From Escherichia coli (GTDB lineage Bacteria; Pseudomonadota; Gammaproteobacteria; Enterobacterales; Enterobacteriaceae): a DNA stretch of 64,000 nt. Shown here piece by piece: positions 1-31,712 of this stretch. The stretch lies in assembly GCF_045037415.1 (NCBI RefSeq), contig NZ_CP173438.1, one strand, 5' to 3'. Both the position numbers and the translations under genes were made by a program. The notes under the pieces are model-generated. The model searched no databases. It worked only from the letters and a program-made list of their open reading frames with translations, and was not told the DNA's origin. Position 1 is the first letter of the stretch; each line of letters opens with the position of its first letter.

Positions 1-903
1 CGCTCAGACATTACGGTGACAGAATGGCTTGATAAATATATTTCTATCCAAGAGGACAGGCTGCAACATAATGAACTAAGACCCAACTCCTATCGGCAAA
101 AAGGCAAACCCATTCGTCTTTTCCGTGAGCATTGTGGAATGCAACACCTCAAGGATATTACCGCACTTGATATTGCCGAAATAATTGATGCTGTAAAGGC
201 TGAAGGTCATAACAGGATGGCGCAAGTCGTGAGAATGGTGTTGATCGACGTCTTCAAAGAAGCACAACACGCAGGACATGTTCCGCCAGGATTTAACCCA
301 GCGCAGGCAACAAAACAACCGCGAAATCGAGTAAACCGCCAAAGATTGTCACTGCCCGAATGGCAGGCAATATTTGACAGCGTAAGCAGACGGCAGCCCT
401 ATTTAAAATGCGGCATGCTACTTGCTCTTGTTACTGGACAACGTTTAGGCGATATCTGCAATTTGAAATTCTCTGATATATGGGACGACATGTTGCACAT
501 TACTCAGGAAAAAACCGGTTCAAAACTTGCTATTCCGCTTAACCTGAAATGCGATGCTCTGAATATTACCCTTCGTGAAGTTATATCTCAGTGCAGGGAT
601 GCTGTTGTTAGTAAATATCTGGTCCATTACCGTCACACTACCTCTCAAGCAAACAGAGGAGACCAGGTTTCTGCAAATACTCTGACAACGGCTTTTAAAA
701 AGGCCCGGGAAAAATGTGGCATAAAATGGGAGCAAGGAACTGCGCCCACATTTCATGAGCAGCGATCTCTGTCAGAACGGTTATATCGGGAACAGGGTCT
801 GGATACGCAAAAGTTGTTAGGCCATAAATCCAGAAAAATGACCGACCGATACAATGATGATCGTGGTAAAGACTGGATTATCGTAGATATCAAAACAGCA
901 TAG
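1..903 (+). CDS. int: Lambda-family tyrosine integrase, 5'-truncated by the window edge (frame open to position 1)
   Basis: Translation ends ...HEQRSLSERLYREQGLDTQKLLGHKSRKMTDRYNDDRGKDWIIVDIKTA, closely paralleling the lambda Int C-terminus including the catalytic Tyr in the RY(N/R)DDRG motif and the HxxR box. No in-frame stop between position 1 and the GTG at 16. Confidence 0.85.
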   Translation, partial: RSDITVTEWLDKYISIQEDRLQHNELRPNSYRQKGKPIRLFREHCGMQHLKDITALDIAEIIDAVKAEGHNRMAQVVRMVLIDVFKEAQHAGHVPPGFNPAQATKQPRNRVNRQRLSLPEWQAIFDSVSRRQPYLKCGMLLALVTGQRLGDICNLKFSDIWDDMLHITQEKTGSKLAIPLNLKCDALNITLREVISQCRDAVVSKYLVHYRHTTSQANRGDQVSANTLTTAFKKAREKCGIKWEQGTAPTFHEQRSLSERLYREQGLDTQKLLGHKSRKMTDRYNDDRGKDWIIVDIKTA

Positions 904-913
904 AAAATAGCCA

Positions 914-950
914 GTTTTGGGGAAGGGTTTTGGGGAAAGTTTTGGGGAAG
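914..950. repeat. Three tandem direct repeats GTTTTGGGGAAGG / GTTTTGGGGAAAG / (G)TTTTGGGGAAG between int stop and icd terminator
   Basis: Read directly from the sequence: head-to-tail copies with 13-bp periodicity immediately downstream of the int stop codon. Confidence 0.85.
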
Positions 951-970
951 ATTTTACATCATCATAAAAC

Positions 971-993
971 AACGGGCGTGTTATACGCCCGTT
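971..993. terminator. Hairpin AACGGGCGTGTTATACGCCCGTT; likely rho-independent terminator for icd (minus strand), possibly bidirectional
   Basis: Perfect 9-bp stem with a T-rich tract following on the minus strand (TTGTTTTAT), about 25 nt downstream of the icd stop. Confidence 0.55.
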
Positions 994-1016
994 TCAATAT
1001 TTAACACATGTAGTGA

Positions 1017-2267
1017 TTACATATTCTTGATGATCGCGTCACCAAACTCTGAACATTTCAGCAGTTTAGCGCCTTCCATCAGACGTTCGAAGTCATAGGT
1101 TACGGTCTTGGCATTGATTGCGCCTTCCATACCTTTAACAATCAGGTCAGCCGCTTCAGTCCAACCCATATGGCGCAGCATCATCTCAGCGGAGAGAATA
1201 ATAGAGCCTGGGTTTACTTTGTCCTGTCCGGCATATTTCGGCGCAGTACCGTGGGTGGCTTCAAACAGGGCGCATTCGTCACCGATGTTTGCGCCAGGGG
1301 CGATACCGATACCACCAACCTGCGCTGCCAGGGCGTCAGAAATGTAGTCACCGTTCAGGTTCATACAGGCGATAACATCATATTCAGCCGGACGCAGCAG
1401 GATCTGTTGCAGGAATGCATCAGCAATCACGTCTTTAATGACGATCTCTTTGCCGGTATTCGGGTTTTTAACTTTCAGCCACGGGCCGCCGTCGATCAGT
1501 TCACCGCCAAATTCTTCACGCGCCAGTTGGTAGCCCCAGTCTTTAAACGCGCCTTCGGTGAACTTCATGATGTTGCCTTTGTGCACCAGGGTCACAGAGT
1601 CACGATCGTTAGCAATTGCGTATTCGATCGCTGCACGAACCAGACGTTTGGTGCCTTCTTCCGAACACGGCTTAATACCGATACCGCAATGTTCCGGGAA
1701 GCGAATTTTCTTCACGCCCATCTCTTCACGCAGGAATTTAATCACTTTCTCAGCGTCGGCAGAGTCTGCTTTCCATTCGATACCCGCATAAATGTCTTCC
1801 GAGTTTTCACGGAAGATAACCATATCGGTCAGTTCAGGGTGTTTAACCGGGCTTGGAGTGCCCTGATAGTAACGTACCGGACGCAGGCAGATGTAGAGAT
1901 CCAGTTCCTGGCGCAGGGCAACGTTCAGAGAGCGAATACCGCCACCAACCGGAGTGGTCAGCGGGCCTTTAATGGCAACGCGATATTCACGAATCAGATC
2001 AAGGGTTTCAGCAGGCAACCAGACGTCCTGACCATAAACCTGTGTGGATTTTTCACCGGTGTAAATTTCCATCCAGGAGATTTTACGCTCGCCTTTATAG
2101 GCTTTCTCGACTGCAGCGTCGACCACTTTCAGCATGGCTGGGGTTACATCTACACCGATTCCATCACCTTCAATGTAAGGGATAATCGGATTTTCAGGAA
2201 CGTTGAGTTTGCCGTTTTGCAGGGTGATCTTCTTGCCTTGTGCCGGAACAACTACTTTACTTTCCAT
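1017..2267 (-). CDS. icd: Isocitrate dehydrogenase (NADP)
   Basis: 416-aa [41 protein letters not shown]..., full-length match to the E. coli Icd sequence known from memory. Confidence 0.97.
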
Positions 2268-2438
2268 TCACCTCTCCTTCGAGCGCTACTGGTTTGCTCG
2301 TCTGCCACCACGTTGCATATGCGTTTGCGTCCTGCGATACGGATGCTTTAGAGCAATTTTTTGTTAATGATTTGTAATTAGCTTGTCAATACTACCCTAT
2401 TGTTTGCCGTCATGAAAGATGCGCGTTATTAGGCTATA

Positions 2439-3092
2439 ATGCGGCAATTCATAATCTCTGAAAATACCATGCAAAAAACTTCTTTTAGAAATCACCAGGT
2501 TAAGCGATTCAGCTCGCAACGTTCTACCAGGCGTAAACCTGACAACCAGCCCACGCGTGTGATCCTGTTCAATAAACCCTACGATGTTCTTCCGCAGTTC
2601 ACCGATGAAGCCGGACGCAAAACATTAAAAGAATTCATCCCGGTTCAGGGGGTGTATGCGGCAGGTCGTCTCGACCGCGACAGCGAAGGGTTACTGGTGC
2701 TGACCAATAACGGCGCGTTGCAGGCGCGTTTAACCCAGCCGGGTAAACGCACCGGAAAAATCTATTATGTGCAGGTGGAAGGTATTCCCACACAAGACGC
2801 ACTTGAAGCCTTGCGCAATGGCGTAACCTTAAATGATGGCCCTACCCTGCCCGCAGGCGCGGAGCTGGTTGAAGAACCCGCGTGGTTATGGCCGCGGAAT
2901 CCACCAATTCGTGAGCGCAAAAGTATTCCCACCAGCTGGCTGAAGATCACCTTATATGAAGGACGTAATCGCCAGGTGCGCCGCATGACCGCCCATGTTG
3001 GTTTCCCCACGCTGCGACTGATTCGCTATGCGATGGGGGATTACTCTTTGGATAATCTTGCCAATGGCGAATGGCGAGACGCGACAGATTAA
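2439..3092 (+). CDS. rluE: 23S rRNA pseudouridine2457 synthase
   Basis: 217-aa ORF, divergent from icd as in E. coli; pseudouridine synthase family sequence. Confidence 0.9.
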
Positions 3093-3101
3093 GGATGCAA
3101 A

Positions 3102-4723
<1,622 letters not shown>

Positions 4724-4758
4724 TTATTATCTTTACTTAAAACAAGGAAGCAGTGAAC

Positions 4759-5400
4759 GTGGCAAAGAATTACTATGACATCACCCTCGCCCTGGCCGGT
4801 ATTTGTCAGTCGGCACGCCTGGTGCAACAACTCGCTCACCAGGGGCATTGTGATGGCGATGCGCTACACGTCTCACTCAACAGTATTATCGATATGAACC
4901 CCAGCTCAACGCTGGCGGTTTTTGGCGGCAGCGAAGCCAACCTGCGCGTCGGGCTGGAAACCTTGCTCGGCGTACTCAATGCCAGCAGTCGCCAAGGCTT
5001 AAACGCCGAATTAACCCGCTACACACTCAGTCTGATGGTGCTTGAGCGCAAACTCTCCTCAGCGAAAGGTGCGCTCGACACTCTGGGCAACCGGATCAAC
5101 GGCCTGCAACGCCAGCTCGAACACTTCGATTTACAGTCCGAAACGCTGATGAGCGCGATGGCTGCCATCTATGTTGATGTTATCAGCCCGCTTGGCCCGC
5201 GCATTCAGGTCACGGGTTCCCCTGCTGTACTGCAAAGCCCACAGGTGCAGGCGAAAGTTCGCGCAACCCTGCTGGCAGGCATTCGCGCCGCCGTGCTCTG
5301 GCACCAGGTCGGCGGCGGTCGTCTGCAACTGATGTTTTCTCGTAATCGCCTGACCACTCAGGCAAAACAAATTCTTGCTCATTTAACCCCGGAGTTGTGA
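4759..5400 (+). CDS. hflD: High-frequency-lysogenization protein HflD
   Basis: Sequence [28 protein letters not shown]...; GTG start at 4759 gives 213 aa (alternative GTG at 4753). Confidence 0.9.
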
Positions 5401-6774
<1,374 letters not shown>

Positions 6775-6787
6775 GCCTCAAATCAGT

Positions 6788-6815
6788 GCCGGATGGCGAT
6801 GCTGTCCGGCCTGCT
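6788..6815 (+). terminator. Candidate purB terminator / REP-like hairpin (GCCGGATGGCGATGCTGTCCGGC)
   Basis: GC-rich inverted repeat 14 nt after the purB stop followed by a T-rich stretch; weak U-tract. Confidence 0.4.
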
Positions 6816-6864
6816 TATTAAGATTATCCGCTTTTTATTTTTTCACTTTACCTCCCCTTCCCGC

Positions 6865-6882
6865 TGGTTTATTTAATGTTTA
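6865..6882 (+). promoter_or_regulatory. PhoP box (direct repeat TGGTTTA-N5-TGTTTA) in the phoPQ promoter
   Basis: Sequence TGGTTTATTTAATGTTTA about 60 bp upstream of the phoP ATG; matches the (T/G)GTTTA-N5-(T/G)GTTTA PhoP-binding consensus known for phoP autoregulation. Confidence 0.75.
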
Positions 6883-6942
6883 CCCCCATAACCACATAAT
6901 CGCGTTACACTATTTTAATAATTAAGACAGGGAGAAATAAAA

Positions 6943-7614
6943 ATGCGCGTACTGGTTGTTGAAGACAATGCGTTGTTACGTCACCATCTTAAAGTTCAGA
7001 TACAGGATGCTGGTCATCAGGTCGATGACGCAGAAGATGCCAAAGAAGCCGATTATTATCTCAATGAACATTTACCGGATATTGCGATTGTCGATCTCGG
7101 ATTGCCTGACGAGGATGGTCTGTCACTGATTCGCCGCTGGCGTAGCAATGATGTTTCACTGCCGATTCTGGTATTAACCGCCCGTGAGAGCTGGCAGGAC
7201 AAAGTCGAAGTATTAAGTGCCGGTGCTGATGATTACGTGACTAAACCGTTTCATATTGAAGAGGTGATGGCGCGAATGCAGGCATTAATGCGGCGTAATA
7301 GCGGTCTGGCTTCACAGGTCATTTCGCTACCACCGTTTCAGGTTGATCTCTCCCGCCGTGAATTATCTATTAATGACGAAGTGATCAAACTGACCGCGTT
7401 CGAATACACCATTATGGAAACGTTGATACGCAATAATGGCAAAGTGGTCAGCAAAGATTCGTTAATGCTACAACTCTACCCGGATGCGGAGCTGCGGGAA
7501 AGCCATACCATTGATGTACTGATGGGACGTCTGCGCAAAAAAATTCAGGCACAATATCCGCAAGAAGTGATTACCACCGTTCGCGGCCAGGGCTATCTGT
7601 TCGAATTGCGCTGA
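6943..7614 (+). CDS. phoP: Two-component response regulator PhoP
   Basis: 223-aa [43 protein letters not shown]...; OmpR-family receiver plus winged helix. Confidence 0.97.
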
Positions 7615-9074
7615 TGAAAAAATTACTGCGTCTTTTTTTCCCGCTCTCGCTGCGGGTACGTTTTCTGTTAGCAACGGCAGCAGTAGTATTGGTGCTTTCG
7701 CTTGCCTACGGAATGGTTGCGCTGATCGGTTATAGCGTCAGTTTCGATAAAACCACGTTTCGGCTGTTACGTGGCGAGAGCAATCTGTTCTATACCCTTG
7801 CGAAGTGGGAAAACAATAAGTTGCATGTCGAGTTACCCGAAAATATCGACAAGCAAAGCCCCACGATGACACTAATTTATGATGAGAACGGGCAGCTTTT
7901 ATGGGCGCAACGTGACGTGCCCTGGCTGATGAAGATGATCCAGCCCGACTGGCTAAAATCGAACGGTTTTCATGAAATTGAAGCGGATGTTAACGATACC
8001 AGCCTCTTGCTGAGTGGAGATCATTCGATACAGCAACAGTTGCAGGAAGTGCGGGAAGATGATGACGACGCGGAGATGACCCACTCGGTGGCGGTAAACG
8101 TCTACCCGGCAACATCGCGGATGCCAAAGTTAACCATTGTGGTGGTGGATACCATTCCGGTGGAGCTAAAAAGTTCCTATATGGTCTGGAGCTGGTTTAT
8201 CTATGTGCTCTCAGCCAATCTGCTGTTAGTGATCCCGCTGCTGTGGGTCGCCGCCTGGTGGAGTTTACGCCCCATCGAAGCCCTGGCAAAAGAAGTCCGC
8301 GAACTGGAAGAACATAACCGCGAATTGCTCAATCCAGCCACAACGCGGGAACTGACTAGTCTGGTACGAAACCTGAACCGACTGTTAAAAAGTGAACGCG
8401 AACGTTACGACAAATATCGTACGACGCTCACCGACCTGACCCATAGTCTGAAAACGCCACTGGCGGTGCTGCAAAGTACGCTGCGTTCTCTGCGTAGTGA
8501 GAAGATGAGCGTCAGTGATGCTGAGCCGGTAATGCTGGAGCAAATCAGCCGCATTTCACAGCAAATTGGCTACTACCTGCATCGTGCCAGTATGCGCGGC
8601 GGGACATTGCTTAGCCGCGAGCTGCATCCGGTCGCCCCACTGCTGGACAATCTCACCTCGGCGCTGAACAAAGTGTATCAACGCAAAGGGGTCAATATCT
8701 CTCTCGATATTTCGCCAGAGATCAGCTTTGTCGGTGAGCAGAACGATTTTGTCGAGGTGATGGGCAACGTGCTGGATAATGCCTGTAAATATTGCCTCGA
8801 GTTTGTCGAAATATCTGCAAGGCAAACAGACGAGCATCTCTATATTGTGGTCGAGGATGATGGCCCCGGTATTCCATTAAGCAAGCGAGAGGTCATTTTC
8901 GACCGTGGTCAACGGGTTGATACTTTACGCCCTGGGCAAGGTGTAGGGCTGGCGGTAGCCCGCGAAATCACCGAGCAATATGAGGGTAAAATCGTCGCCG
9001 GAGAGAGCATGCTGGGCGGTGCGCGGATGGAGGTGATTTTTGGTCGCCAGCATTCTGCACCGAAAGATGAATAA
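7614..9074 (+). CDS. phoQ: Sensor histidine kinase PhoQ
   Basis: 486-aa ORF overlapping the phoP stop (ATGA); histidine kinase motifs ([12 protein letters not shown]) and periplasmic sensor domain. Confidence 0.97.
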
Positions 9075-9149
9075 ATATGTCCATACTTCACGCATTACGT
9101 TAAGCATCCGTTATAATCGGTTGCAGATACCAGCCTGTGGATGCTTAAC

Positions 9150-10271
9150 ATGGAATACCAACTCACTCTTAACTGGCCCGATTTTCTTGAACGTCACTGG
9201 CAGAAACGTCCGGTGGTGTTAAAACGCGGCTTTAATAATTTTATTGACCCGATCTCTCCAGACGAGTTGGCGGGTTTGGCGATGGAAAGCGAAGTCGACA
9301 GTCGACTGGTCAGTCATCAGGATGGCAAATGGCAGGTCAGCCACGGTCCATTCGAAAGCTACGATCATCTCGGTGAAACTAACTGGTCATTGTTAGTGCA
9401 AGCAGTGAACCACTGGCATGAGCCGACCGCCGCGCTAATGCGACCGTTCCGTGAACTACCGGACTGGCGTATTGATGATCTGATGATCTCTTTTTCTGTA
9501 CCGGGCGGCGGCGTCGGCCCGCATCTCGATCAGTACGACGTGTTTATCATTCAGGGTACCGGTCGTCGTCGCTGGCGAGTGGGCGAAAAGCTGCAAATGA
9601 AACAGCACTGCCCTCACCCGGATCTGTTACAGGTCGATCCGTTCGAAGCCATCATCGATGAAGAGCTGGAGCCTGGCGATATTCTTTATATTCCGCCAGG
9701 ATTCCCGCATGAAGGCTACGCGCTGGAAAATGCGATGAACTATTCCGTGGGTTTTCGCGCGCCAAATACGCGGGAACTGATTAGCGGATTTGCCGATTAT
9801 GTGCTGCAACGTGAACTGGGCGGCAACTACTACAGCGATCCTGATGTTCCACCTCGCGCTCATCCTGCGGACGTTCTGCCGCAAGAGATGGATAAACTGC
9901 GTGAGATGATGCTCGAATTGATCAACCAGCCAGAACATTTTAAGCAATGGTTTGGCGAGTTTATATCCCAGTCACGTCATGAACTGGATATCGCGCCGCC
10001 AGAGCCGCCTTATCAGCCGGATGAAATCTACGATGCGCTGAAACAAGGTGATGTGCTGGTGCGCCTGGGGGGTCTGCGCGTATTGCGCATTGGCGACGAC
10101 GTGTATGCCAATGGTGAGAAGATCGATTCCCCGCACCGTCCGGCACTGGATGCGCTCGCCAGCAACATTGCGCTGACCGCGGAGAATTTTGGCGATGCGC
10201 TGGAAGATCCGTCATTCCTCGCGATGCTCGCGGCGCTGGTCAATAGCGGATACTGGTTCTTCGAAGGGTAA
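9150..10271 (+). CDS. roxA: Ribosomal protein uL16 arginine hydroxylase (JmjC/cupin oxygenase, YcfD)
   Basis: MEYQLTLNWPDFLERHWQKRPVVLKRGF...; start at the MEYQ methionine gives 373 aa. Confidence 0.9.
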   Translation: MEYQLTLNWPDFLERHWQKRPVVLKRGFNNFIDPISPDELAGLAMESEVDSRLVSHQDGKWQVSHGPFESYDHLGETNWSLLVQAVNHWHEPTAALMRPFRELPDWRIDDLMISFSVPGGGVGPHLDQYDVFIIQGTGRRRWRVGEKLQMKQHCPHPDLLQVDPFEAIIDEELEPGDILYIPPGFPHEGYALENAMNYSVGFRAPNTRELISGFADYVLQRELGGNYYSDPDVPPRAHPADVLPQEMDKLREMMLELINQPEHFKQWFGEFISQSRHELDIAPPEPPYQPDEIYDALKQGDVLVRLGGLRVLRIGDDVYANGEKIDSPHRPALDALASNIALTAENFGDALEDPSFLAMLAALVNSGYWFFEG

Positions 10272-10286
10272 GTTTGGATTTAAGCC

Positions 10287-10317
10287 GGATGCGGCATCAC
10301 ATGCCGCATCCCTTTTC
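10287..10317. terminator. Palindromic hairpin GGATGCGGCAT-CAC-ATGCCGCATCC between convergent roxA and pepT
   Basis: Perfect 11-bp stem followed by TTTT on the plus strand; lies between the two convergent stop codons. Confidence 0.6.
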
Positions 10318-10319
10318 GC

Positions 10320-11546
10320 TTACTTCCGTTGCGCCGTCAACTCGGCAATACGGACGATCACCTGCACCGCTTTTTCCATACCTTCCAGAGTCACAAACTC
10401 ATGCTTACCATGATAGTTGTAACCGCCAGTGAACAGGTTCGGGCACGGTAATCCCATAAACGACAACTGCGCGCCGTCGGTACCGCCGCGGATCGGTTTC
10501 AGTTCCGGTTCAATATCGCAGTCACGCATCGCCTGCTGGGCGATATCGAGAATATGCGGATGCTCAACCACTTTCTCGCGCATATTGTAGTAACTGTCTT
10601 CAATCACCAGTTCAATGTAGCAATCAGGATGTAACCCTTTGCCCACTTTTTTGGCGATCTCCATCATTTTACGTTTACGCGCTTCAAACTGTTTACGGTC
10701 GAAATCACGGATGATGTAGTGCATATCGGCCCGTTCAACGGTGCCTTTCATGCTCGCCAGGTGATAGAAACCTTCATAGCCTTCTGTCATTTCCGGGCTT
10801 TCATCCGCCGGAACTTCCGCATGAATACGTGCCGCCAGCGACAGCGCATTTACCATCACTCCTTTCGCCGTGCCCGGGTGAACATTGTTACCGACAATTT
10901 TGATATTGACCGACGCGGCGTTGAAGTTTTCAAACTCCAGTTCACCTACGCCACCACCATCAACGGTGTAAGCCCAGCGGGCATCGAAGGCGTCAACATC
11001 AAAATGTTTCGCCCCTTTGCCCACTTCTTCATCCGGGGTAAAGGCGACGCGAATATCACCATGCGGAATGTTTTTTTGTTGCAATACCGCCAGCGCGGTC
11101 ATGATTTCTGCAATACCTGCTTTGTCATCGGCACCTAACAAGGTTTTACCATCGGTGGTAATCAGCGTCTGACCCAGTAGCTGATGCAGCACCGGGAACA
11201 TAACCGGTGATAAAACTTCATCGCCGATACCCAGCGCAATATCGCCACCGCGATAGTTTTCAACAATTTGCGGATTCACATTTTTGCCGCTGCAATCCGG
11301 TGAGGTATCCACATGAGAAATAAAGCCAATCGCCGGGATATCGCCAGGGACGTTAGCCGGTAACGTCGCCATCAAAGTGCCCTTCTCACTTAAGGTCACA
11401 TTGATAAGCCCCATCTCTTCGAGCTGCTCTTTCAGCAGATGCAATAACTTCCATTGGCCTTCCGTGCTGGGAACCTGTCTCACCCCTGCCTTTGATTGGG
11501 TATCAAGAGACACGTAGTTCAAAAATCGCTCAAGTAGTTTATCCAT
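10320..11546 (-). CDS. pepT: Peptidase T (tripeptide aminopeptidase)
   Basis: ORF contains [35 protein letters not shown]...; start at MDKLL gives 408 aa (ORF track extends 14 codons upstream). Confidence 0.93.
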
Positions 11547-11795
11547 GTAGTCACCCTCACTTTTTGTGACAACATTATTAAGAAGCAAGAAAAGACAAAT
11601 ATTGCGTCAGGTCACTTTTAGCCCTGCAAGCGGGAATATTTATCAGCATTACCTTAATGAATATAAAGCTAAGCCAGTAATTCACAACAAAGATTGGCGA
11701 TTCAAGCGGTTTGCCGTAGAATTACCGCCCTCATTAAGAGTCACCAAGGTGGTTAACCACAAACCCCGCATCGGTAAGCCATCCGTTGCGTTTAC

Positions 11796-12932
11796 ATGGG
11801 ACAGAGTAAAAAATTGAATAAACAACCGAGTTCGCTTTCACCGCTGGTGCAATTGGCGGGAATTCGCAAATGCTTTGATGGTAAAGAGGTCATTCCCCAG
11901 CTGGATCTGACTATCAACAATGGCGAGTTCCTCACGCTGCTTGGCCCTTCTGGCTGCGGTAAAACAACCGTTCTTCGCCTGATTGCAGGTCTGGAAACTG
12001 TTGATTCCGGACGCATCATGCTGGATAACGAGGACATCACCCACGTTCCGGCGGAAAACCGCTATGTGAACACTGTTTTCCAAAGCTACGCACTTTTCCC
12101 CCACATGACCGTGTTCGAAAATGTGGCCTTTGGGTTGCGCATGCAAAAAACCCCCGCAGCTGAAATTACGCCCCGCGTGATGGAAGCCCTGCGGATGGTG
12201 CAGCTGGAAACCTTCGCTCAACGCAAACCGCATCAGCTCTCTGGTGGTCAACAGCAACGCGTCGCCATTGCTCGCGCGGTGGTTAACAAGCCTCGTCTGT
12301 TGTTGCTGGATGAGTCGCTCTCAGCGCTGGATTACAAACTGCGTAAGCAAATGCAGAACGAGCTGAAAGCGTTACAGCGTAAGCTTGGCATTACATTCGT
12401 GTTCGTAACTCACGACCAGGAAGAAGCACTTACCATGTCGGACAGGATCGTGGTGATGCGCGATGGTCGCATTGAGCAAGACGGCACGCCGCGTGAAATC
12501 TACGAAGAGCCGAAAAACCTGTTTGTTGCCGGGTTTATTGGCGAAATCAATATGTTTAACGCCACTGTCATCGAACGTCTCGACGAGCAGCGCGTACGCG
12601 CCAACGTTGAAGGCCGCGAATGTAATATCTACGTTAACTTCGCCGTTGAACCGGGGCAAAAACTGCATGTTCTGCTGCGCCCGGAAGACTTACGTGTTGA
12701 AGAGATTAACGACGACAACCACGCCGAAGGGCTGATTGGTTACGTTCGCGAGCGTAACTACAAAGGCATGACGCTGGAGTCGGTTGTTGAGCTGGAAAAT
12801 GGCAAGATGGTGATGGTCAGCGAATTCTTCAATGAAGACGATCCTGACTTTGACCACTCTCTCGACCAAAAAATGGCCATTAATTGGGTAGAAAGCTGGG
12901 AGGTCGTACTGGCTGATGAAGAACACAAGTAA
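11796..12932 (+). CDS. potA: Spermidine/putrescine ABC transporter ATPase
   Basis: 378-aa ORF with Walker A (GPSGCGKTT), ABC signature ([14 protein letters not shown]) and Walker B. Confidence 0.96.
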
Positions 12933-12945
12933 GTTCCAGAATGTA

Positions 12946-13773
12946 GTGATTGTCACTATTGTCGGTTGGCTTGTGTTGTTTATCTTTCTGCCCAACCTGA
13001 TGATCATTGGCACCAGCTTTTTGACCCGCGACGACGCCAGTTTCGTCAAAATGGTCTTTACGCTGGATAACTACACGCGTCTGCTCGATCCGCTCTATTT
13101 TGAAGTGCTATTGCACTCGCTGAATATGGCGCTGATCGCCACCCTCGCCTGCCTGGTGCTGGGCTATCCTTTTGCCTGGTTTCTGGCGAAGCTGCCACAC
13201 AAGGTGCGTCCGCTGCTGCTGTTTCTGCTGATTGTTCCGTTCTGGACCAACTCATTGATTCGTATTTACGGGCTGAAAATTTTCCTCAGCACCAAAGGCT
13301 ATCTCAACGAGTTTTTGCTCTGGCTGGGCGTTATCGATACACCAATTCGCATCATGTTCACGCCTAGTGCGGTGATTATCGGTCTGGTTTACATTCTGCT
13401 GCCGTTTATGGTGATGCCGCTGTACTCCAGTATCGAAAAACTGGATAAGCCGTTGCTTGAGGCGGCGCGCGATCTCGGTGCCAGCAAGTTGCAGACCTTT
13501 ATTCGCATCATTATCCCACTGACGATGCCGGGAATTATTGCCGGATGTCTGCTGGTGATGCTGCCAGCGATGGGCCTGTTCTATGTGTCCGACCTGATGG
13601 GCGGTGCGAAAAACCTGCTGATCGGTAACGTCATCAAGGTACAGTTCCTCAATATTCGTGACTGGCCGTTTGGTGCAGCCACCAGCATTACGCTGACTAT
13701 CGTAATGGGCCTGATGTTGCTGGTTTACTGGCGCGCTTCTCGTTTGCTGAATAAGAAGGTGGAACTCGAATGA
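12946..13773 (+). CDS. potB: Spermidine/putrescine ABC transporter permease
   Basis: Polytopic membrane protein overlapping the potA end; GTG start at 12946 gives 275 aa, alternative ATG at 12916 gives 285 aa. Confidence 0.88.
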   Translation: MIVTIVGWLVLFIFLPNLMIIGTSFLTRDDASFVKMVFTLDNYTRLLDPLYFEVLLHSLNMALIATLACLVLGYPFAWFLAKLPHKVRPLLLFLLIVPFWTNSLIRIYGLKIFLSTKGYLNEFLLWLGVIDTPIRIMFTPSAVIIGLVYILLPFMVMPLYSSIEKLDKPLLEAARDLGASKLQTFIRIIIPLTMPGIIAGCLLVMLPAMGLFYVSDLMGGAKNLLIGNVIKVQFLNIRDWPFGAATSITLTIVMGLMLLVYWRASRLLNKKVELE

Positions 13774-29249: not shown

Positions 29250-29789
29250 TTATACTTTGTTATTCAAAATCAGCTGCCCGTTGCTATCTAGCGGGATCTG
29301 CGTACCCGGATCGCGGTCCATGCGGATTTTGCCCTGCTGATCGCCAATCTTATAGGTCACATCATAACCGAGCATTTTTTCTGACTTGTCATACACCGTT
29401 TTACAACGCTGTTGCGTAGTCGTGTAAGTATCGCTTTCCTGGAGAGAGCCCTGGATCTGGTTACCTGCATATCCACCCCCCAGCGCCCCCACAACAGTGG
29501 CGACATCTTTACCGCGACCACCTCCAAACTGATGCCCAATCACGCCGCCAGCAACAGCGCCGAGCACCGACCCGGTAATGCGATTTTCATCCTGCACCGG
29601 TCGACGATGGGTCACTGTAACGTTGCGACACTCCTGACGCGGTGTTTTAACCGTTTCCTTGATTGGGGTTGCAGAAACAACCTGAGCGTATTGCGGGCCA
29701 CGTTCAAACACGTTCAGACTGGCCACTGCCGCTACGCCCAGCGCAGCTGCGACACCAATCCCGATACCCGCCAACATTGACTTATTCAC
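29250..29789 (-). CDS. ycfJ: Glycine-zipper (Rick_17kDa_Anti family) outer membrane protein YcfJ
   Basis: Signal/TM N-terminus and Gly-rich GxxxG repeats (VLGAVAGGVIGHQFGGGRGKDVATVVGALGGGYAG); GTG start gives 179 aa. Confidence 0.85.
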   Translation of the reverse strand: MNKSMLAGIGIGVAAALGVAAVASLNVFERGPQYAQVVSATPIKETVKTPRQECRNVTVTHRRPVQDENRITGSVLGAVAGGVIGHQFGGGRGKDVATVVGALGGGYAGNQIQGSLQESDTYTTTQQRCKTVYDKSEKMLGYDVTYKIGDQQGKIRMDRDPGTQIPLDSNGQLILNNKV

Positions 29790-29914
29790 GGGAACACCTC
29801 CTTCTTTGTAGTTATGCCAATCATGCAAGCGAAGGAGAAAAGCAGCTATCAGACAGAAGATGAAAAGCGCGGGAATGGCTGGAAATACTCAGGGATTCGG
29901 AGGAGTCTGAAGGA

Positions 29915-30005
29915 ATGCCTGATGCGACGCTTAACGCGTCTTATCAGGCCTACCGCTCGTACCATTTGTCCAGGGCGGATAAGGCGTTTATGCCCCATCC
30001 GCCAG
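29915..30005. repeat. REP/BIME element
   Basis: GCCTGATGCGACGCTTAACGCGTCTTATCAGGCCTAC plus GGCGGATAAGGCGTTTATGCCCCATCCGCC in the ndh-ycfJ intergenic region. Confidence 0.85.
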
Positions 30006-30015
30006 TACAAGTCGA

Positions 30016-31320
30016 TTAATGCAACTTCAAACGTGGACGGATAACGCGGTTAATACTCCCCACCAGCATCATTAATCCGGTTTTAAAGTAACCATGCAGC
30101 GCAATCTGGTGCATTCGGTACAGCGAGATGTATACAAAGCGCGCAATTCGTCCTTCAATCATCATTGAGCCGCGCGTCAGGTTACCCATCAGGCTACCGA
30201 CTGTGGAAAAGTTCGACAGCGATACCAGCGAACCGTGATCTTTATACTGATAATTTTTCAGCGGCTTACCGTTCATCTGCGCCAGAATGTTGTTCATTGC
30301 GCAGGTTGCCATCTGATGTGCGGCCTGAGCGCGCGGCGGAACAAAGCCCCCTTCCGGACGCGGGCATGACGCGCAGTCGCCAATAGCGTATATGTCTGGA
30401 TCGCGAGTGGTTTGCAGCGTCGGTTCCACCACCAGCTGGTTGATACGGTTGGTTTCAAGACCACCGATATCTTTCAGGAAGTCTGGCGCTTTGATCCCGG
30501 CTGCCCACACCATCAGATCAGCCTCAATATATTCGCCATCTTTAGTGTGCAGGCCGCCTTCATCAGCACTGGTGACCATGGTTTGCGTCAGCACGCGAAC
30601 GCCAAGTTTCGTTAACTCACTATGGGCCGCAGCAGAGATACGTGGCGGCAATGCAGGCAAAATACGTTCGCCCGCTTCTACCAGCGTTACGTTCAGGGCT
30701 TCGTTGGTCAGACCTTTATAACCGTAACTGTGCAGTTGCTTGACCGCGTTGTGCAATTCAGCGGAGAGTTCTACACCCGTCGCGCCGCCGCCGACAATCG
30801 CAATGTTTACTTTGCCATTCGCGCCCAGGTTGGCGGAGTATTTCAGGAACAGATTCAGCATCTCCTGGTGGAAGCGACGCGCCTGGTGCGGGTTATCGAG
30901 GAAAATGCAGTTCTCTTTGACACCTGGTGTATTGAAATCGTTAGAGGTGCTACCCAGCGCCATTACCAGGGTGTCATAGGCGATTTTACGTTCCGGAACC
31001 AGCAGTTCACCTTTCTCGTCGCGCAGTTCTGCAATAGTGATTGTTTTCGCTTCACGATCAATATCAATTACGGAACCCAGCTGGAACTGGAAACCATGAT
31101 TGCGCGCATGGGCCAGATAGCTCAACGCATCGACGCCTTCATCAAGCGAGCCAGTCGCCACTTCGTGCAGCAGCGGTTTCCACAAGTGGCTGTGGTTACG
31201 ATCGACCAGCGTAATTTTGGCTTTTTTCTTGCGTCCCAGCTTATGCCCCAGCTGTGTTGCCATTTCCAGCCCACCAGCACCGCCGCCGACAATCACAATT
31301 TTTTTCAATGGCGTAGTCAA
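30016..31320 (-). CDS. ndh: NADH dehydrogenase II (NDH-2)
   Basis: [25 protein letters not shown]... (FAD GxGxxG motifs); 434 aa from a TTG codon preceded by an AAGGGGG Shine-Dalgarno. The ORF-track start at 31347 is an upstream extension. Confidence 0.92.
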
Positions 31321-31589
31321 CGTGACCCCCTTAAATTTATTAACCAATTGTTAATTAATGGTTATTAACATAGCTCTTAATTAACAACAGGTTATAGCAA
31401 TGAAAATGTTCTTCGCTATTGAGAATAACATGAATGGTGCATTGGTCATACCAAAATTGATGTTAATCAAGTTTTGTTGCTGAAAAGATAGGCGACTTTA
31501 CCGGGTGAGATCAAAAAACAGAGTTTGTTGTTCATTATTTGAGCTGATTTGTGAGAATGATATAGAGTGAGGTGTGTATGGAGGGCGTT

Positions 31590-31712
31590 CGGTAGGCCTG
31601 ATAAGAGGCGCATCAGGCATTGATGCTCGACTGTCGGATGCGGCGGAACGCCTTATCCAACCCACAGAATCAGGAGCGCATCAGGTACCGGCAAGGTTAC
31701 CTGATGCGACGA
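31590..31712. repeat. REP/BIME cluster (three REP-like palindromes)
   Basis: AGGCCTGATAAGAGGCGCATCAGGC, CGGATGCGGCGGAACGCCTTATCC, GCGCATCAGGTACCGGCAAGGTTACCTGATGCGAC in the ndh upstream region. Confidence 0.85.

Follow-up and report, generated by a model that had tools for sequence, protein, structure and literature searches.

The UUG initiation codon of ndh in an Escherichia coli chromosome: start site, conservation and upstream region

The ndh start and its annotation

The minus strand of a 64 kb stretch of E. coli chromosome (the window) carries ndh, whose reading frame can be entered near its 5' end at either of two TTG codons. The questions raised by this locus are which codon initiates translation and whether a non-ATG start makes synthesis of this respiratory enzyme unusually dependent on context. 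The TTG at 31320–31318 is almost certainly the well known UUG initiation site of E. coli ndh (NADH dehydrogenase II). Identity with the annotated gene makes its product a type II (non-proton-pumping) NADH:quinone oxidoreductase. The features on which the argument turns are the following.

31320..30016, minus strand: ndh coding sequence, 434 codons plus a TAA stop (open reading frame, translation and RefSeq CDS mapping)
31320–31318, minus strand: ndh initiation codon TTG (UUG) (sequence, annotation, published profiling peaks and orthologs)
31332–31326, minus strand: Shine–Dalgarno (SD) sequence AAGGGGG, separated from the TTG by a 5 nt spacer (TCACG)
31347–31345, minus strand: upstream in-frame TTG, a decoy and not the start (sequence, lack of an SD, comparative evidence)
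31353–31351, minus strand: in-frame TAA that closes the frame upstream, directly before the upstream TTG (sequence and candidate listing)

The start TTG is followed by ACT ACG CCA TTG AAA AAA, which reads TTPLKK, and the in-frame stop lies ten codons 5' of it. The maximal open reading frame, which is the range quoted in the initial annotation, extends over 31347..30016 and would encode 443 residues. The earliest in-frame ATG is codon 20 (31263–31261), with two weaker in-frame candidates, a TTG at codon 5 and a GTG at codon 9, also inside the gene. According to the candidate listing there is no better in-frame AUG near the UUG, which opens the frame of the mature protein. The initial annotation had noted this TTG with AAGGGGG at good spacing, and both are present at 31320–31318 and 31332–31326. 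It had also named the TTG at 31347–31345 as the only in-frame candidate upstream, with no upstream ATG, which the sequence bears out; its description of the upstream side was exact, but its list of candidates omitted the two weaker ones downstream, at codons 5 and 9.

A comparison with reference annotation, which the initial annotation had proposed as a check, gives exactly the same codon in both genomes consulted. The RefSeq ndh CDS of strain SK1144 (NZ_AP018784.2), which is 100% identical to the window around ndh, maps exactly onto 31320..30016, and RefSeq annotates ndh of K-12 MG1655 (b1109) at 1166085..1167389 with a TTG start at 1166085. The K-12 start region reads ...AAGGGGGTCACG TTG ACT ACG... 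and contains the same TTG and SD as the window. The title of the original ndh sequence paper contains the words 'UUG initiation codon' (Young et al., 1981). The TTG start has thus been known since 1981 and stands in every reference annotation, and what the initial annotation presented as an open question is a textbook fact.

The K-12 and window loci share the gene, its start codon, its SD and its upstream region, as well as the gene order ycfP–ndh–ycfJ. Over 105 nt around the start they differ only by a synonymous change in codon 7 (AAA against AAG); the strain of the window departs from K-12 by a few substitutions, synonymous or minor, and nothing relevant differs.

Several other features of the surroundings were recorded. 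REP-type palindromic repeats are present on both sides of ndh, at 31580–31700 and 29900–30010 (GCCTGATGCG.../...CGCATCAGGC, CTTATCCG...), and account for multiple BLAST placements per genome. In the neighbouring ycfJ (29250–29828, minus strand), the longest open reading frame begins at TTG 29828 (192 residues), while the RefSeq start is GTG 29789 (179 residues), which is preceded by a perfect AAGGAGG; the longest open reading frame thus over-extends ycfJ, as it does ndh. Farther away, SK1144 carries a lambdoid prophage by potC (integrase, excisionase, exonuclease, dicB and hokD), at the position of which the window (1–13700) instead contains potA, pepT, phoQ, purB and icd. Some other strains that are identical around ndh have an ISEc52 insertion in the 1–13700 stretch.

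Ribosome profiling, the protein and rival start codons

Published ribosome profiling, the kind of evidence that the initial annotation had called for, places initiation at the annotated TTG. In Table S2 of the INRI-seq study, the entry for K-12 ndh (b1109, start 1166085) gives 16.6, 27.7, 16.0, 37.2 and 40.0 CPM and is called TRUE, so that an in vitro initiation peak is listed in five of five replicates; the same table gives an in vivo retapamulin peak (Ribo-RET; Meydan et al., 2019) of 101.8 at this start, also TRUE (PMC9825163). The INRI-seq criterion as given there assigns a peak to an annotated start when it falls 12–18 nt into the coding sequence, which excludes candidates 27 nt upstream and 12 nt downstream of the ndh TTG. 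By these criteria Ribo-RET is stated to confirm only about 18% of annotated starts (PMC9825163), which puts ndh among the well supported ones. The profiling data are from K-12 and not from the window strain, the initiation region being the same save for the synonymous change in codon 7. Among the rows listed, ndh appears in no other INRI-seq supplementary table. It (ndh/b1109) likewise has no entry among the rows listed of the 2026 N-terminomics set (TRAINSPOTTER); its tryptic N-terminal peptide, TTPLK, is very short, so that the lack of an entry carries little weight.

The protein also fits a start at 31320–31318. NADH:quinone oxidoreductase activity is established for E. coli Ndh, and would extend to the window product through its identity with the annotated gene. 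The Pfam domain PF07992 (Pyr_redox_2) covers residues 6–338 (E = 1.8e-64), with PF00070 (Pyr_redox) nested within it at residues 172–255 (E = 4.4e-16), and the two GxGxxG motifs for FAD and NADH are GGGAGG at residues 12–17 and GGGATG at residue 177. Alignments to solved NDH-2 structures begin at Ndh residues 4–7; the matches include YjlD (PDB code 9pxk; E = 1.4e-42) and the enzymes from Staphylococcus aureus (5na1), Caldalkalibacillus (4nwz) and Plasmodium (5jwa). Given these alignments, the first β-strand and GGGAGG need the start at 31320–31318.

Against this background, translation that begins wholly or partly at the upstream TTG (31347–31345), giving a 443-residue protein, is very unlikely. 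Standing in frame just after a stop, this codon opens the longest open reading frame, and its A/U-rich surroundings could in principle favour 30S binding; however, it has no SD (predicted duplex with the 16S rRNA 3' end of +1.9 kcal/mol), it forms part of the hairpin stem predicted for the 5' UTR (see below) and the profiling peak is positioned 12–18 nt after the annotated start and not 27 nt further upstream. Moreover, in ten relatives' loci, which include several Citrobacter species, Buttiauxella, Pluralibacter, Erwinia and a 93%-identical relative, the upstream TTG does not share the ndh frame or is followed by an in-frame stop; it therefore cannot be a conserved start. The nine-residue N-terminal extension that it would add has no counterpart in relatives. 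It is just as improbable that translation begins instead at the downstream TTG of codon 5, GTG of codon 9 or ATG of codon 20, with the annotated TTG a mere convention. These codons are present in frame, codon 5 is ATG in the Pantoea septica group, and databases carry both 434-residue and 430-residue gene calls for relatives (once both from one Erwinia genome). The predicted SD pairing upstream of codons 5, 9 and 20 is nevertheless weak or absent (−2.7, +0.4 and −5.4 kcal/mol, respectively), and neither of the first two is kept as a start: Salmonella has TTA at codon 5, and Pantoea has GTT or ATT there and GTT at codon 9. A start at codon 9 or 20 loses the first β-strand or the GGGAGG FAD-binding motif and would destroy the first Rossmann unit, and the profiling window rules out any start at least 12 nt downstream of the annotated TTG.

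The remaining alternative is that an ancestral ATG was changed to TTG by a mutation in this strain alone, or reads as TTG through a sequencing error; it can be dismissed with near certainty. Of 5,426 complete E. coli genomes, 5,425 have the ndh region, and at least 5,323 contain an exact copy of the 34 nt string from the SD through the TTG to codon 6; the ATG and GTG versions of this 34-mer match none of them. The 1.8 kb around the start are 100% identical to many independent complete genomes, and TTG is found at this position in about ten other genera. A sequencing error that created or removed an ATG, which the initial annotation had named as a possible refutation, is excluded by these exact matches, by the identity with K-12 and by the lack of any ATG or GTG variant. 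The reading that ndh starts at TTG 31320–31318 and not at the upstream TTG, as the initial annotation had proposed, is accordingly upheld by RefSeq, the 1981 title, the ribosome peaks and conservation across genera.

Conservation across genera and Shine–Dalgarno strength

Orthologs were collected with a degenerate DNA pattern from one genome per species, which returned 50 stretches, four of them unrelated matches in metagenome-assembled genomes (MAGs); the sample is without a named Klebsiella, Serratia, Yersinia or Vibrio locus. Of the 44 scan orthologs with enough flanking sequence, 43 (Escherichia, Salmonella, Citrobacter, Pantoea and Mixta) have TTG at the homologous position, the sole exception being Intestinirhabdus alba, with ATG at the same position. 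Five further relatives were reached through protein homologs, and four of them have TTG (Buttiauxella, Pluralibacter, Erwinia persicina and a 93%-identical relative); in the fifth, Shimwellia blattae, the start is ATG and the N-terminus four codons shorter. Overall, 47 of the 49 orthologs sampled, which represent about ten enterobacterial genera, therefore carry TTG at this codon, and on sequence comparison Intestinirhabdus and Shimwellia would represent two independent switches to ATG. The run of Gs in the SD is nearly invariant across genera (four or five Gs), with variation in the spacer and at synonymous sites. In the Pantoea and Mixta loci the region reads ...GGGGGTCTTTG TTG ACT..., with a further TTG directly before the homologous one, so that two in-frame TTG codons stand in tandem.

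The SD of ndh is unusually strong. Its predicted duplex with the 16S rRNA 3' end has a free energy of −11.9 kcal/mol, which ranks second among the 47 genes annotated along the colinear stretch of the window (from 13770 onward). In the predicted minimum-free-energy fold of the 5' UTR the SD is unpaired and the start codon lies in a weak local stem.

IF3 accepts AUG, GUG and UUG as start codons. From established knowledge of initiation, the 30S subunit would be positioned on ndh by the strong AAGGGGG, which could base-pair with the 3' end of 16S rRNA at seven positions, one being a G–U pair. fMet-tRNAfMet would read the UUG, so that Ndh would start with fMet, and the methionine would then be removed because residue 2 is Thr, leaving TTPLKK as the mature N-terminus. 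Young and coworkers reportedly gave an N-terminal sequence of the Ndh protein that begins at the codon after UUG.

The strong SD may compensate for the weaker start codon. A general tendency for a switch to GUG or UUG to be accompanied by a stronger, compensating SD has been published (PMC5622118), and the strong SD at the ndh UUG fits this trend. Separately, the four strongest SD duplexes among the 47 starts are all found at non-ATG codons (ycfJ GTG, ndh TTG, fabF GTG and nagZ GTG). This distribution agrees with weak start codons being compensated by the SD. Annotation bias could also produce it, with gene callers taking a non-ATG start more readily if an SD is present.

Upstream region and the use of UUG

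The region 5' of the start contains the following elements.

31347–31388, minus strand: AT-rich 12 bp inverted repeat GTTGTTAATTAA ... TTAATTAACAAT with GTTAATTAA-type words, in the 5' UTR, predicted to form a hairpin
31422–31430, minus strand: probable extended −10 element TGtTATTCT, proposed from its conservation
31442–31454, no strand assigned: palindrome TTGGTATGACCAA, a probable PdhR operator (sequence; kept in Enterobacteriaceae)
31457–31470, no strand assigned: perfect FNR consensus box TTGAT-N4-ATCAA (consensus match)

Almost all of the 16 genera aligned retain the TG and TATTCT of the extended −10 element; Shimwellia has TATGAT. This element would place the transcript start near 31413 and give a 5' UTR of about 93 nt. 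A simple two-hexamer promoter scan called no ndh promoter, its sole promoter-like match lying inside the coding sequence at chance level; the promoter is apparently of the extended −10 type without a −35 element, which that scan cannot detect. A terminator scan detected no intrinsic terminator after ndh. The FNR box is the only zero-mismatch match in the 64 kb window and is kept in nearly all of the 16 aligned genera, and a TTGAT half-site lies 44 bp further upstream. The spacing of the extended −10 element to the FNR box fits the published position of −50.5. The palindrome TTGGTATGACCAA is presumably bound by PdhR, an assignment made from the PdhR consensus.

The 155 nt fold that includes the 5' UTR hairpin has a predicted z-score of −2.46, and the hairpin lies a short way 5' of the SD. 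The two arms are conserved as sequence, and no compensatory changes are found in Pantoea. ArcA sites have been predicted at +36 to +68 of ndh (PMC3411108). An RNA regulatory structure was rejected as the preferred reading of the repeat in view of the lack of compensatory changes and its coincidence with the predicted ArcA sites, and the GTTGTTAATTAA...TTAATTAACAAT repeat is likelier to be an ArcA DNA operator than an RNA element. A six-codon upstream reading frame was also considered (31371–31351, minus strand; ATG TTA ATA ACC ATT AAT TAA), whose stop codon is the TAA at 31353–31351, directly before the upstream TTG. The ATG is unconserved, since E. albertii, C. koseri, Buttiauxella and others have ATA or ATT instead, and the frame was rejected as probably meaningless.

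Repression of ndh by FNR, ArcA and PdhR is documented (PMC3411108). The upstream sites agree with this repression. Thus, ndh expression is controlled mainly at transcription, and nothing found here points to special translational control.

These observations bear on the further claim of the initial annotation that a non-ATG start would make translation of ndh unusually dependent on context, which finds no support. E. coli has three canonical start codons, which in reporters yield 10–100% of AUG-level initiation; UUG belongs to them and is used by about 3% of genes (10.1101/063800). Of the 47 annotated starts in the window, two are TTG (ndh and plsX) and seven are GTG. Context matters for non-AUG starts in general (PMC5499595), but nothing sets ndh apart, with its canonical codon and very strong, well spaced SD.

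Like ndh, rpsT (listed with TTG in the N-terminomics data), cdsA (PMC11448367) and, in the window, plsX combine UUG with the initiator tRNA. The last of these (48713–49783, minus strand) is the only other TTG-annotated gene in the window and has a weak SD (−5.8 kcal/mol), in contrast to that of ndh. The AUU start of infC, which is autoregulated through IF3 (10.1101/063800), resembles the ndh UUG in being a non-AUG codon that lowers the intrinsic efficiency of initiation. The infC codon, however, is truly non-canonical, and its discrimination by IF3 is the regulatory mechanism, whereas the ndh UUG is a canonical start. Start-codon regulation of the IF3 type is not known for ndh.

The persistence of the codon invites an adaptive explanation, namely that UUG and the near-maximal SD were selected in Enterobacteriaceae and Erwiniaceae as a tuning device, and are not a neutral relic, either to give moderate synthesis of NDH-2 or to respond to the IF3 level, ppGpp or nutrient limitation. 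The retention of TTG in all but two of the sampled orthologs speaks for this explanation, which we nonetheless consider doubtful. Genome-wide analyses are reported to show weak selection for the highest initiation rate, for which AUG is optimal (PMC5622118). Sensitivity to ppGpp and nutrient limitation is reportedly greater for non-AUG mRNAs, the UUG mRNA being the least affected (PMC5499595). The TTG may have been kept since a moderate level of Ndh is of benefit, or at least does no harm.

The ndh TTG is one of more than 100 TTG starts in E. coli; it is ordinary and matters little in itself. It can serve to check that start-site calling is sound but is not a discovery, and the longest-ORF choice, the upstream TTG, can be ruled out by comparison with relatives and by ribosome profiling. 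The other additions made here are equally modest: no ATG or GTG version was found among 5,426 complete E. coli genomes, and TTG and a strong G-rich SD are kept over about ten genera, with two apparent switches to ATG. Such long-term conservation of TTG together with a near-maximal SD could be neutral or could reflect selection for moderate NDH-2 synthesis.
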